A DNA stretch of 24,000 bases from Methylocystis sp. (GTDB taxonomy: Bacteria > Pseudomonadota > Alphaproteobacteria > Rhizobiales > Beijerinckiaceae), in NCBI RefSeq assembly GCF_051061285.1, contig NZ_JBPFEA010000021.1:9863-33862 (forward strand), read 5' to 3'. How positions within the stretch are numbered: position 1 is the first letter of the stretch; every line of letters begins with the position of its first letter. Both the position numbers and the translations under genes were made by a program. Below the pieces are notes generated by a model. That model was not told the origin of the DNA. It saw only the letters and a program-made list of their open reading frames with translations, and made no database searches. Shown piece by piece: positions 5,943-9,087 of the stretch.

Positions 5943-6824
5943 TTATCGCTCCGCGAGAATTTGTAGCTTCGCGACGGTCGCTATGGTCGGCGCGTAGGCA
6001 AAATCAGGGAATGCGGCGCGCGTCGCTTCGATGTCAAACGGACGATAGCCGTTATGCGGCATAGGTCCAACGCGCGGCGTCTCTTCGACCGCTACTTTAC
6101 GCCGCGAGGCGCCGGCTACCGCTTCCGCTAGCGCGCGGAACGAATGCGCCTCTCCGGTCGCTACATTAAGCACGCCGATCGAGCGCCGCATCAATATCCG
6201 GAAAAGGATCTCGGCGAGATCGTCAATCCAAACATGGTCGCGTCGCTCCTCGCCCGCGCCGAAAACCGCGATATTCTCACCGGCCGCCGCTAAGCGACGA
6301 AAGCGATTGGGGCCATAGCCGTTGTGCGGATCCTCAAGACCATAGAGAAGGGTCGGACGCACGATCGTCAACGGCGCCGAGATATCCGAGCGAAATGCGA
6401 TTTCCCGAACAAGGTGCATGGCGCCGTGCAGCGTTCCAGGCGCCGTGGGCGTCTCTTCGTCAATCGGAACCGGCACGTCGGCGTAGACGGCGTCCGAGCT
6501 GATGTTGATCACATGCGATGGAGCCGCATCCTTTAACGCCGCGACCATCGCGCGCGTCATTTTGACATTCTCGATAAGCATGTCGAGAGAGCGGCAAGGC
6601 GCGCGCGCCGCGGCCGCCACGACCGCATCGCCCGGCTGCAAAATCGCGCGCAATTGCTTCTCGGCGCCGTCGGCAAGCAGATCGATCTGCTGGCGGGCGA
6701 TCGCCACTACGGGAATTTGCGCGCGCGCGATGCGGCGACAGAGCGCGCCGCCGACAAATCCACTCCCACCGATGACAACAACGCGAGCGGGAGCCATCGG
6801 AGCGGGAGCGAGATGACGTAGCAT
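5943..6824 (-). CDS. atypical SDR-fold NDP-sugar reductase/epimerase-like protein (catalytic YxxxK replaced by HxxxH)
   Basis: Rossmann motif VVVIGGSGFVGGAL, then ISSDAVY. The 293-aa length is RmlD/epimerase-like. The position where the other three SDRs in this operon have YxxxK reads HGAMH (codons 6414-6428). ATG at 6822-6824 shares one base with the upstream TAA (TAATG). Alternative ATG at 6795-6797. Confidence 0.8.
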   Translation of the reverse strand: MLRHLAPAPMAPARVVVIGGSGFVGGALCRRIARAQIPVVAIARQQIDLLADGAEKQLRAILQPGDAVVAAAARAPCRSLDMLIENVKMTRAMVAALKDAAPSHVINISSDAVYADVPVPIDEETPTAPGTLHGAMHLVREIAFRSDISAPLTIVRPTLLYGLEDPHNGYGPNRFRRLAAAGENIAVFGAGEERRDHVWIDDLAEILFRILMRRSIGVLNVATGEAHSFRALAEAVAGASRRKVAVEETPRVGPMPHNGYRPFDIEATRAAFPDFAYAPTIATVAKLQILAER

Positions 6825-8140
6825 TAGACGATTCCCGCGCTCGAGTTATGGCGAGACCCGAGCGTGTAGTAATCGAGGCCGGCCGCCGCGGCGGCGCGTG
6901 GATCGAGTAGGCGATAGGGATCAATGACAATGCGACCCCGCATCGTCCGAGCTATTTCCTCAACGCCAACTCGACGATAAGCGGGCCAGGGCGTCAAGAT
7001 CATCAAGGCGTCGGCGCCTTCTAGCGCCGCGAGCGGCGAGTCGACGCCCGTCAATCGCGCATGAGAAATTGCGCTTGCTTGCACCACAGGATCATGCGCG
7101 ACGAATCGCGTTTCTGGCAGACCCGTGATCGTTGCGACGGACGGCGAATTCTTAATTGAATGCGTATTCTCCTTGTAGGCGAGGCCCCAAACCGCGATCG
7201 TCGCCTCGGGCTTTTCACGAAGCAGAGCGGTCGAGATCGTGCGACGCGCCCAATCGCGGCGGCGCCGGCTGTTATCGATCCATGCGCGCACGACGCCCGC
7301 GTCCGTTTCGAAACGCTCGGACAATGCAACGACCGTCGCAAGATCACGTTCGAGATTCCCGCCTGCGATCCCCAATCCCGGCGAGAGATAGGCGCTTGGG
7401 CCGATGCGGGCGTCGAGCTTCAACGCGGGAACGATCTCGGACCACTCGGCCCCTATATTTTCACAAAGTTCCGCCAGCGTGTTGGCGACGCTGATCGAAG
7501 ACACCAAGCAGCAGTTGATCGCGATCTTGCAGAGTTCGGCGCTCTCGTAGCTCATCGGGATCAACGGACATCCGAATGCGGAGAGCAACGCCTTGTAGCG
7601 CGGCTCCAGCGGCGCATCGGAATCCGCGCATCCGATAATCGTTCGCTCCGGATGCAGCGCGCGCGCCATGGCGCGGCCAAACACGAGCGTTTCGACCTGA
7701 TAGTAAAGCCGCTCCGGCGGAACTGCGCGCACGCCCCGCGTAAAACCCGGCGGCACCTGACAAAGAATGACGAGAATCCCATCGGGCCGTAGCGCCTTCG
7801 CCACCGCCTCGATAATGGCGACGATCGGGCTAAGATCGCTTTGGCCCCTATCGTCGGTCGGCACGTCGTATGAAATATAGACGATGTCGCATTCCGCGAG
7901 CCGCGAAAGATCGTTGGTGAAGGCTTGCCGAGCGCCATTGGCGCGCAGGAGCTCATCCAGATCCGGTTCGTCGATCGGAGGCTGGCCCGCCGAAAGCCGC
8001 CCGATTAGTTGCGAATCGGAATCATAGCCGATCGTCTTAAAGCCTTTCGCCGCGACGGAGGTCGCGGAGACGATTCCAAGGTGGGTCATGCCGGCGAAGC
8101 CGACGATAATATCCGAAGCGTGCTTGATTGCGGAAGTCAT
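6824..8140 (-). CDS. UDP-glucose/GDP-mannose dehydrogenase-family protein, catalytic Cys position = Asn
   Basis: N-terminal Rossmann VGFAGMTHLG, central domain LDARIGPSAYLSPGLGIAGGNLERD, C-terminal domain VWGLAYKENTHSIKNSP. Start reset from 8386 to ATG 8138-8140 (ATGA overlap with the upstream stop). 438 aa. Confidence 0.85.
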   Translation of the reverse strand: MTSAIKHASDIIVGFAGMTHLGIVSATSVAAKGFKTIGYDSDSQLIGRLSAGQPPIDEPDLDELLRANGARQAFTNDLSRLAECDIVYISYDVPTDDRGQSDLSPIVAIIEAVAKALRPDGILVILCQVPPGFTRGVRAVPPERLYYQVETLVFGRAMARALHPERTIIGCADSDAPLEPRYKALLSAFGCPLIPMSYESAELCKIAINCCLVSSISVANTLAELCENIGAEWSEIVPALKLDARIGPSAYLSPGLGIAGGNLERDLATVVALSERFETDAGVVRAWIDNSRRRRDWARRTISTALLREKPEATIAVWGLAYKENTHSIKNSPSVATITGLPETRFVAHDPVVQASAISHARLTGVDSPLAALEGADALMILTPWPAYRRVGVEEIARTMRGRIVIDPYRLLDPRAAAAAGLDYYTLGSRHNSSAGIV

Positions 8141-9087
8141 GCGTCTTGCCTGCGGCGTCGCCGCGATTGTTCGAGAACCACTTCCTCGAGTCGCGCCAAC
8201 ACGTCTCGCAGCCATAGGTCGTTTGAGAGGTCGGTCTTTGCTCGAGATTGGCACATGCGCTTGAAATGCTCGTATTCGACCTTCCAAGTCGGATCGTCCT
8301 GCACGAGCGTGACCGCCTGTTCCGGCGGGCGCCCCGACGGAAGAATTCGCCGTCGCATCGTAAAAGTCGACGGACCCCATTTGCACAGCGATTCAATGTG
8401 AGCGCTGCCGTTTTCTGCAAGGATATCGCAAGCGAAGTGATTGCGCCATGAGAGCAGCGTCATTTCGAGTTCGATGCGACATGCGCCGTCTTCATTGCCG
8501 ATAATGACGTGATCGGGCGACTTGTTCTCAAAGCAGTTGACGGCGACCAGTTTGAATCTCGCATCGATGTCGCCGAACCAGAAACGGCATGTGTCCAGAA
8601 GGTGCGAGCCAAGATCCGGTAGCACGCCGGCCCCGCTATCGCGCCATTCCGAATTTCGCACGAGGCGCGCCGTTCCATTGCCGTAGAACATGCGACAGGA
8701 ATAGATCCGCCCCAGTTCGCCCGACGCAATGAGGTCGCGCATGCGCACGAAATGCGGTTCGAAGCGATGATTATAGGCCGTGTAGCAAACGACGTTCGCG
8801 GCGCGCGCGAGGCGCCCGAGTTTGTCAATTTCTGAGGCCGTACGCGTCCATAGCGGCTTTTCGACCAGCGCGTGCTTTCCATTCGCCAGCAGGTATTCAA
8901 GAATTGCGAATTTCGGCTCATCGGGTATGCAGCACAGCGCCGCATCGAAGCTATCGAGCGGAACGTCTTTTATGTCTCGATAGTCTGCGGCGGCATTGTA
9001 GGGGTCGACGGTCGCGACGAAGTCTTCGCCGGCAAACGCACGCCTTTTATGTCCCTGGACCCCGAGGCCGACAACGATCACTCTCAT
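8137..9087 (-). CDS. Gfo/Idh/MocA-family NAD(P)-dependent oxidoreductase
   Basis: The protein begins MRVIVVGLGVQG (Rossmann) and carries the EKP motif in HALVEKPL. Start reset from 9306 to ATG 9085-9087, 4 nt after the upstream stop. The 5'-extended part of the ORF is Arg/Ser-rich read-through. Confidence 0.85.
   Translation of the reverse strand: MRVIVVGLGVQGHKRRAFAGEDFVATVDPYNAAADYRDIKDVPLDSFDAALCCIPDEPKFAILEYLLANGKHALVEKPLWTRTASEIDKLGRLARAANVVCYTAYNHRFEPHFVRMRDLIASGELGRIYSCRMFYGNGTARLVRNSEWRDSGAGVLPDLGSHLLDTCRFWFGDIDARFKLVAVNCFENKSPDHVIIGNEDGACRIELEMTLLSWRNHFACDILAENGSAHIESLCKWGPSTFTMRRRILPSGRPPEQAVTLVQDDPTWKVEYEHFKRMCQSRAKTDLSNDLWLRDVLARLEEVVLEQSRRRRRQDA

Follow-up and report, generated by a model that had tools for sequence, protein, structure and literature searches.

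We analyzed a 24,000-nucleotide stretch of DNA from Methylocystis sp. (contig NZ_JBPFEA010000021.1, positions 9,863 to 33,862; hereafter the window). It shares 96-98% identity with Methylocystis suflitae and M. silviterrae and carries two adjacent minus-strand genes (Table 1), one for a protein of the UDP-glucose dehydrogenase (UGDH) family without the catalytic cysteine, here called UGDL, and one for a Gfo/Idh/MocA oxidoreductase, here called Gfo. The UGDL reading frame runs from an ATG at 8140-8138 to a TAA at 6826-6824, and that of Gfo from an ATG at 9087-9085 to a TGA at 8139-8137. Longer open reading frames of 520 and 389 residues were rejected as the real UGDL and Gfo genes; the shorter starts, giving 438 and 316 residues, are taken as real because homologs of 425-441 and 305-316 residues begin there.

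Table 1. Features of the UGDL/Gfo operon, with positions in the window
Feature	Positions	Strand	Basis
UGDL (name used here), UGDH-family gene without catalytic Cys, 438 residues	6824-8140	-	Pfam, TIGR03026, PDB alignments
GMTHLG (residues 17-22), in place of the GxGxxG dinucleotide-binding motif	8075-8092	-	His20 invariant in clade alignment A3
YDVPTD, replacing the canonical (V)GTP motif; Thr to Val, Asp92 clade-invariant	7853-7870	-	alignments
YQVETLVFG, replacing canonical NPEFLxEG; first Glu kept, second Glu to Phe	7676-7702	-	alignments
ELCKIAIN, keeping UGDH catalytic Lys205 and Asn209	7514-7537	-	both invariant in clade alignment A3
Clade signature PGLGIAGGNLERD, replacing canonical GxGxGGxCFPKD	7343-7381	-	Arg265, Asp266 invariant
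AAT codon, Asn262, position of the UGDH thioester-forming Cys	7355-7357	-	alignments, homolog counts
Gfo/Idh/MocA oxidoreductase, 316 residues, partner of UGDL	8137-9087	-	Pfam GFO_IDH_MocA and C-terminal domains, PDB relatives
Gfo motif GLGVQG (GxGxxG)	9052-9069	-	homolog alignment
Gfo motif VEKP (EKP)	8854-8865	-	homolog alignment
Gfo motif NHRFEP	8755-8772	-	homolog alignment
Gfo motif DLGSHLLD (D-x-G-x-H-x-x-D)	8593-8616	-	homolog alignment
ATGA overlap of Gfo stop and UGDL start, 4 nucleotides	8137-8140	-	direct reading
GmhA-like SIS isomerase	14104-14709	-	family match
GmhB-like HAD phosphatase	13543-14094	-	family match
Transaldolase (TAL)	12760-13533	-	TIGR02134, 340 bits, above cut-off
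SDRa, extended-SDR epimerase/dehydratase family	11750-12763	-	family match
SDRb, extended-SDR epimerase/dehydratase family	10743-11753	-	family match
NTK, N-terminal cytidylyltransferase-like and C-terminal PfkB kinase fusion	9092-10645	-	family match
SDRc, RmlD/GDP-fucose-synthase (Fcl)-like SDR, directly downstream of UGDL	5943-6824	-	family match
S-adenosylmethionine (SAM) methyltransferase	5282-5938	-	family match
4,6-dehydratase-like SDR	4253-5248	-	family match
Split transketolase, two halves	3356-4222 and 2439-3359	-	family match
NUDIX hydrolase	1964-2446	-	family match
SDR, short-chain dehydrogenase/reductase.

The three UGDH domains of Pfam (PF03721, UDPG_MGDP_dh_N; PF00984, central; PF03720, C-terminal) all match UGDL above their cut-offs, and the protein scores 213 bits against TIGR03026, where the cut-off is 190. 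UGDHs in the PDB are matched with E=2e-44 by the single UGDL sequence and with E=2e-78 by the family profile. Together these matches indicate that, at the level of the fold, UGDL belongs to the UDP-glucose/GDP-mannose dehydrogenase family, and its database homologs are annotated accordingly as UDP-glucose 6-dehydrogenase.

The active site departs from that annotation. A first-pass annotation of the window, aligning the central motif by hand to E. coli Ugd, had placed an Asn where UGDHs carry the thioester-forming Cys, and program-made alignments bear this out: phmmer sets the UGDL letters GgNleRD opposite GsCfpKD in the PDB UGDHs 4a7p, 3vtf and 2y0e, and the family consensus shows 'n' opposite Cys in all five PDB alignments shown (3gg2, 4a7p and the three BceC entries 2y0e, 2y0d and 2y0c). 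Every coordinate given in that annotation also proved right. The Thr that it had noticed at the middle Gly of the dinucleotide-binding loop is likewise real; this position is Ser or Thr family-wide, and a clade profile built from 47 sequences and searched against the PDB sets GlsHLG opposite G(i/t/s)GYVG.

We take Lys, Asn, Asp and the first Glu to be the residues of the first hydride transfer in UGDHs, following the roles assigned in UGDH enzymology, and we likewise take Cys, the second Glu and the Thr of the GTP motif, which holds the catalytic water, to serve the hydrolytic, thioester half-reaction. On this assignment UGDL keeps the machinery of the first hydride transfer (Lys205, Asn209, Asp266 and the first Glu): the catalytic K205, N209 and D266, equivalent to S. 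pyogenes K204, N208 and D264, are invariant in clade alignment A3. Those of the second oxidation are replaced, namely the nucleophilic Cys, the Thr that holds the water and the second Glu, and the canonical GxGxxG is missing as well. The first-pass annotation had held that the four-electron oxidation to a uronic acid should be impossible without the Cys; the changes of the GTP-motif Thr to Val and of the second Glu to Phe extend this predicted loss of second-half chemistry beyond the Cys itself.

To place these changes in an evolutionary context, residues were counted in two sets of homologs. The close set holds the 120 closest database homologs of UGDL (63-96% identity), from Methylocystis, Labrys, Methylobacterium, Xanthobacteraceae, and beta- and gammaproteobacteria. 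For the distant set, 1.84 billion cluster representatives were searched exhaustively with HMMER, and the 150 best hits share 29-58% identity with UGDL; residue counts were made on 128 full-length 50%-cluster representatives with 35-58% identity. All 120 close homologs carry GGN[LI]ERD, and the distant representatives have Asn at the Cys position in 105 cases and His in 17, with Cys in 0 of 128. A strain-specific mutation or a sequencing error at Asn262 is rejected by these same counts of Asn. The replacement of Cys by Asn is instead, far beyond chance, the signature of a large and strongly conserved clade.

The change at the Cys position is one of several that we observe conserved together. 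The near-invariant motifs of the clade read G-[LM]-[ST]-H-L-G for GxGxxG, D-V-P-T for G-T-P, Y-Q-V-E-T-L-V-F-G for N-P-E-F-L-x-E-G, P-G-L-G-I-x-G-G-N-L-E-R-D for G-x-G-x-G-G-x-C-F-P-K-D, and G-L-x-Y-K-x-x-T-x-S-x-K-N-S-P for F-K-x-N-T-D-D-x-R-E-S-P, while E-L-x-K-I-x-I-N retains the canonical Lys and Asn. The active-site motifs also contain new invariant residues: His20, Asp92 and Arg265.

These counts bear on the function implied by the database annotation, that UGDL is a four-electron 6-dehydrogenase of a nucleoside diphosphate (NDP) sugar and forms a uronic acid without using a Cys. The three UGDH domains and the passing TIGR03026 score would fit such an enzyme. No Cys is found at or beside the nucleophile position in any of the 248 clade members (120 close and 128 distant), the Thr and second Glu used for hydrolysis are replaced too, UGDHs mutated at this Cys fail to complete the second oxidation, and a C6 that is a secondary alcohol, as in a heptose or octose, cannot become a carboxylate. 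We therefore regard uronic acid formation by UGDL as extremely improbable.

A second alternative is that UGDL is an inert pseudo-enzyme, which either presents a nucleotide sugar to Gfo, with all chemistry done by Gfo, or regulates it. The lost nucleophile, the altered glycine motif, and the constant association with a second, apparently intact dehydrogenase (Gfo or an SDR) would agree with this. Against it, Lys, Asn, Asp and the first Glu of the catalytic machinery show little or no variation, and the newly invariant residues lie in active-site motifs. Decayed remnants of the cluster offer a direct comparison: three loci, two of which keep only SIS-UGDL-NUDIX (L085 and L086; the third is L087), encode UGDLs in which just such residues are lost, with Lys changed to Arg and Asn to Asp or Glu; the losses include the Asn that stands opposite the UGDH Cys and the glycine-loop His. 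These remnants illustrate relaxed selection in the UGDL family. In the clade proper, purifying selection is strong down to 35% identity, which points to a working enzyme rather than a decaying one, and motifs so tightly conserved speak for an enzyme that is active in another reaction. An inert role thus seems improbable to us.

The partner, Gfo, has the hallmarks of its family: matches to PF01408, PF22725 and PF02894, a Rossmann GxGxxG, the EKP motif, and an alpha/beta domain with Asp/His at the C-terminus. Its four motifs (Table 1) are kept in 116-120 of 120 Gfo homologs, and the first-pass description of intact GxGxxG and EKP motifs holds. Its association with UGDL was followed in 80 loci, the best among the 229 GTDB species genomes that have a relative. 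In 74 of the 80 the gene directly upstream of UGDL is Gfo, and in 59 of these 74 adjacent loci the stop and start codons share the same 4 nucleotides. This is the most constant junction of the operon; the others overlap in this way in 4-39 loci. Three in-frame Gfo-UGDL fusions were observed (L014; P0293, 719 residues; P0406, 744 residues). Such fusions are rare, since a protein search with the L014 fusion as query gave only one more. The pair also persists in relatives of 36-50% identity (L081, L082, L083, L084, L090 and L091), where an NTK-GFO-UGDL-SDR core recurs.

The suggestion that the two proteins form a unit is therefore well supported, on grounds other than the one first given for it. 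The ATGA overlap in the window, from which the pairing had been proposed, is a real 4-nucleotide overlap, but it is not particular to this junction: ATGA overlaps also join TAL to SDRa (12760-12763), SDRa to SDRb (11750-11753) and the transketolase halves (3356-3359), and UGDL and SDRc share a TAATG (6822-6826). Translational coupling thus appears to run through the whole operon, and because these overlaps are operon-wide, the one between Gfo and UGDL is by itself weak evidence for a complex. The case for a Gfo-UGDL unit is carried by the comparative data and the fusions: the two families are encoded together, adjacent, overlapping and at times as one polypeptide.

The same evidence bears on a third alternative, in which UGDL and Gfo are sequential, independent dehydrogenases and no dehydration takes place. 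UGDL would carry out one two-electron oxidation, of the side-chain C6 hydroxyl or of another hydroxyl, to a ketone; Gfo would oxidize or reduce another position, such as C3 or C4, as WbpB/WlbA or KijD10 do; and the keto groups would then serve epimerization, methylation or transketolase-type C-branching by enzymes encoded farther along the operon. The active site of UGDL is compatible with one hydride transfer only, as this explanation requires, WbpA and WbpB provide a precedent from the same two families, the operon encodes many further redox and tailoring enzymes, and ATGA overlaps are common across it. On the other hand, the fusions and the near-invariant adjacency and overlap describe a tighter unit than ordinary pathway neighbors, two net oxidations would call for NAD+ turnover and additional reductases, and Gfo scores only 39 bits against the NCBIfam model for UDP-GlcNAc 3-dehydrogenase, far below the cut-off of 450. 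On balance we consider sequential action unlikely, although with an appreciable chance of being correct.

Variants of the pair occur. In several relatives a NUDIX hydrolase is fused to the C-terminus of Gfo (about 480 residues) or lies between Gfo and UGDL (P0157, P0159, P0162, P0192 and P0196; L047, L053, L055 and L061), an arrangement that hints at hydrolysis or proof-reading of an NDP-sugar as part of the pathway. In a partner-swapped side branch an adh_short SDR is fused to a Cys-less UGDL (P0337). One of the His variants has the order PfkB-UGDL-adh_short without a Gfo gene (P0372), and in another locus (L091) both partners occur, with Gfo on the upstream and adh_short on the downstream side.

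The pair sits within one tight minus-strand operon (14709-1964; Table 1), whose order SIS-HAD-TAL-SDRa-SDRb-NTK-GFO-UGDL-SDRc-MT (MT, methyltransferase) is syntenic over about 80 proteobacterial loci, in essentially every one of sufficient length, with proteins 57-89% identical across alpha-, beta- and gammaproteobacteria. The operon is present in at least 229 GTDB species genomes, mostly of Proteobacteria. In content it holds, at the level of families, a set of genes for building an octose: a transaldolase, an isomerase, a kinase, a phosphatase and a nucleotidyltransferase. The kinase and nucleotidyltransferase activities are combined in NTK, whose domain order is the reverse of that in HldE and which is predicted to make the NDP-sugar substrate of UGDL and Gfo; among distant relatives, NTK-GFO-UGDL is the set of three genes that persists best (L081, L082, L084, L090 and L091). 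SDRc follows UGDL in nearly all loci and is a candidate ketoreductase for the product of the pair.

Further downstream, the best PDB relatives of the methyltransferase include a D-glucose O-methyltransferase, and CcbJ is absent from its PDB matches. The 4,6-dehydratase-like SDR is the operon's most conserved protein (76-100% identity across classes), and other loci carry E1-type thiamine pyrophosphate enzymes in place of the split transketolase. As speculation, the 4,6-dehydratase-like SDR and the transketolase might together add a two-carbon branch to a 4-keto sugar, as in sugars of the yersiniose or erwiniose type.

The flanks of the operon vary. Over the 80 loci they include GT2 (13), DegT (12), RfaH/NusG-like (9) and Wzt-like (8) genes, and in some lineages, L081 among them, the cluster adjoins Wzm/Wzt ABC transporter and GT2 genes; this suggests that the sugar goes into surface glycans, or into amino-sugar products in part of the lineages. 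Two loci of the latter kind continue from the core into two or three DegT aminotransferases: L082, on a 614-kb metagenome contig, carries in addition an acetyltransferase of Antibiotic_NAT type, resembling AAC(3), and L084 carries PhyH dioxygenases. Both are possible amino-octose natural-product clusters. The window itself contains no glycosyltransferase. Beyond the operon lie apparently unrelated genes, at 15044-18661 on the plus strand and 18718-23184 on the minus strand; they encode a DAO-type FAD oxidoreductase, an SbmA/BacA-like ABC membrane protein, a VIT1 iron transporter, a cupin, a methyltransferase with a helix-turn-helix domain, a 689-residue protein with a YkuD L,D-transpeptidase domain, and an alpha/beta hydrolase.

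How might an enzyme that lacks the residues for the second half of the UGDH reaction be put to use by such an operon? We favor the explanation that UGDL and Gfo constitute a two-component, redox-neutral NDP-octose 6,8-dehydratase analogous to LmbL/LmbZ of lincosamide biosynthesis, and we rate its chances as about even. The two proteins would act as one functional unit on an NDP-activated higher-carbon sugar supplied by the upstream genes. The most likely substrate is an octose built by the transaldolase, the SIS isomerase, the kinase-nucleotidyltransferase fusion and the HAD phosphatase. Because C6 of a heptose or octose is a secondary alcohol, a single oxidation gives a ketone, so that neither a thiohemiacetal nor the Cys is needed.

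In the proposed reaction, UGDL would first oxidize the C6 hydroxyl with NAD+. The resulting 6-ketone would acidify H7, and the 8-hydroxyl would be eliminated through a C7 carbanion. The enol or diketone so formed needs to be reduced again, which gives a role to the second dehydrogenase and makes the sequence redox-neutral overall; most simply, the Gfo partner would return the borrowed hydride. The net result would be a 6,8-dehydration yielding an NDP-6-keto-8-deoxy-octose, whose ketone SDRc, encoded immediately downstream, could then reduce. In the related clusters L082 and L084, a DegT aminotransferase might instead transaminate the ketone, as LmbS/CcbS do in lincomycin biosynthesis. What we observe are the altered residues and their conservation, the pairing and fusion of the genes, and the content of the operon; from these we infer NAD binding, the octose substrate, the dehydration, and the division of oxidant and reductant between UGDL and Gfo.

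Several points weigh against this 6,8-dehydratase. The clade is known here from its sequences, and its link to LmbL/LmbZ is one of Pfam family, of analogy between gene sets, and of the reaction that LmbL and CcbZ are reported to perform. NAD binding by the G-x-S/T-x-x-G loop of UGDL is assumed, with the middle Gly replaced by Ser or Thr; the Asp at the end of beta-2, conserved in 106 of the 128 distant sequences, fits NAD binding. Since some clade members pair with an adh_short SDR, the chemistry of the partner may not be unique to Gfo. LmbP and LmbO are a GHMP kinase and an RmlA-like enzyme, unlike the HldE-type NTK, and if the families do differ in this way, the nucleotide and the anomer probably differ as well. 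The operon in the window contains no aminotransferase. Finally, the GmhA-like isomerase could also admit sedoheptulose-7-phosphate, which is an ordinary metabolite; a heptose is incapable of 6,8-dehydration, so that a heptose substrate would exclude the reaction and move the case towards sequential dehydrogenases.

A plasmid search returned only canonical, Cys-containing UGDHs, such as one from Kitasatospora with GGGCLPKD. No lmb-type cluster is found in the contexts of nine clade members, all of which are HldE-type clusters or remnants, and of 10 high-GC representatives looked up, none is a Streptomyces protein. Searches of the accessible literature found no description of a Cys-less UGDH clade, of a Cys-less UGDH paired with a MocA-type protein, of a proteobacterial octose cluster, or of the present operon.

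The 6,8-dehydration favored above for the Methylocystis pair may be one case of something broader. We suggest, with a confidence that falls somewhat short of an even chance, that the Cys-less clade marked by G-x-[ST]-H-L-G and GGN[LI]ERD forms an enzyme class of its own, widespread and mis-annotated as UDP-glucose 6-dehydrogenase, whose members deoxygenate the exocyclic chains of NDP-activated higher-carbon sugars, always together with a second dehydrogenase of Gfo or adh_short type. If so, the annotated UDP-glucose 6-dehydrogenase of several hundred bacterial species would be unable to make a uronic acid, and G-x-[ST]-H-L-G, DVPT and an Asn or His in place of the Cys would serve as a signature for re-annotation. 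UGDL would supply one of the two proteins of a side-chain dehydratase that has until now been documented from lincosamide biosynthesis alone, and lincosamine-type sugar chemistry would be old and common outside antibiotic producers. The product of the operon would be an undescribed 8-deoxy-octose for surface glycans, probably O-methylated and possibly C-branched through the 4,6-dehydratase and the transketolase, and the clade would mark methanotrophs, rhizobia-like bacteria and Burkholderiales as likely sources of an eight-carbon deoxy sugar. With soluble proteins, natural fusions and many orthologs, it would also offer a tractable system for studying how a dehydration is divided between two redox proteins. 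The enzymology has precedent; the breadth of the clade, the systematic mis-annotation and the sugar product are the points worth following.

It is instructive to compare UGDL and Gfo with systems already known. With the canonical enzymes Ugd, KfiD, BceC, human UGDH and AlgD, UGDL shares the three-domain fold, the Lys, Asn, Asp and first Glu, and the C-terminal nucleotide-binding domain. Its clade differs from them in Cys to Asn (His in some), GxGxxG to G-x-[ST]-H-L-G, GTP to D-V-P-T, PEFLxEG to VETLVFG and FKxNTDDxRESP to YKxxTxSxKNSP, and in having an obligatory partner dehydrogenase. WbpA and WbpB (WlbA) bring a UGDH-family and a Gfo/Idh/MocA enzyme together in one pathway, the biosynthesis of UDP-ManNAc3NAcA. 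Unlike UGDL, WbpA is a genuine 6-dehydrogenase that relies on its Cys to produce a uronic acid. WbpA works at C6 and WbpB at C3, in sequence, and the two are not known to form a unit. The proposed chemistry resembles that of RmlB, Gmd and DmhA, in which a transient NAD+-dependent oxidation is followed by beta-elimination of water at a distance of two carbons and by return of the hydride. These enzymes differ in having the SDR fold and a single polypeptide and in working at ring C4/C6, and the operon has a separate homolog of them in its 4,6-dehydratase-like SDR.

The closest likeness is to lincosamide biosynthesis. Wang et al. are said to have shown in 2020, in PNAS, that LmbL and CcbZ perform the 6,8-dehydration. 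In that pathway LmbR is a transaldolase, LmbN a C8 isomerase, LmbK a C8 phosphatase, LmbO a guanylyltransferase and LmbP a predicted C8 kinase (PMC4351081, Table 2); LmbL is a predicted C8 dehydrogenase and LmbZ a predicted C8 oxidoreductase (PMC4351081). GDP-octose is converted to GDP-lincosamide by LmbM, LmbL, CcbZ and CcbS (PMC12945683). As with LmbL and LmbZ/CcbZ, compared here at the level of families, a nucleotide-sugar-dehydrogenase-like protein is paired in the window with a Gfo/Idh/MocA-type oxidoreductase; the pair is surrounded by a transaldolase, an SIS isomerase, a HAD phosphatase, a sugar-1-kinase, a nucleotidyltransferase and an SDR epimerase, as described for the Lmb genes (PMC4351081, Table 2; PMC12945683), and a keto product would pass to the next enzyme of the pathway. 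The differences lie around this core. Activation in the window is by an HldE-like PfkB/cytidylyltransferase fusion, so that the sugar is probably ADP- or CDP-linked rather than GDP-linked. The next enzyme is an SDR reductase, whereas the Lmb/Ccb pathways use a pyridoxal phosphate-dependent aminotransferase (LmbS/CcbS). The host is a methanotrophic alphaproteobacterium, and in several loci the operon has glycosyltransferase or Wzt genes as neighbors instead of belonging to an antibiotic cluster.

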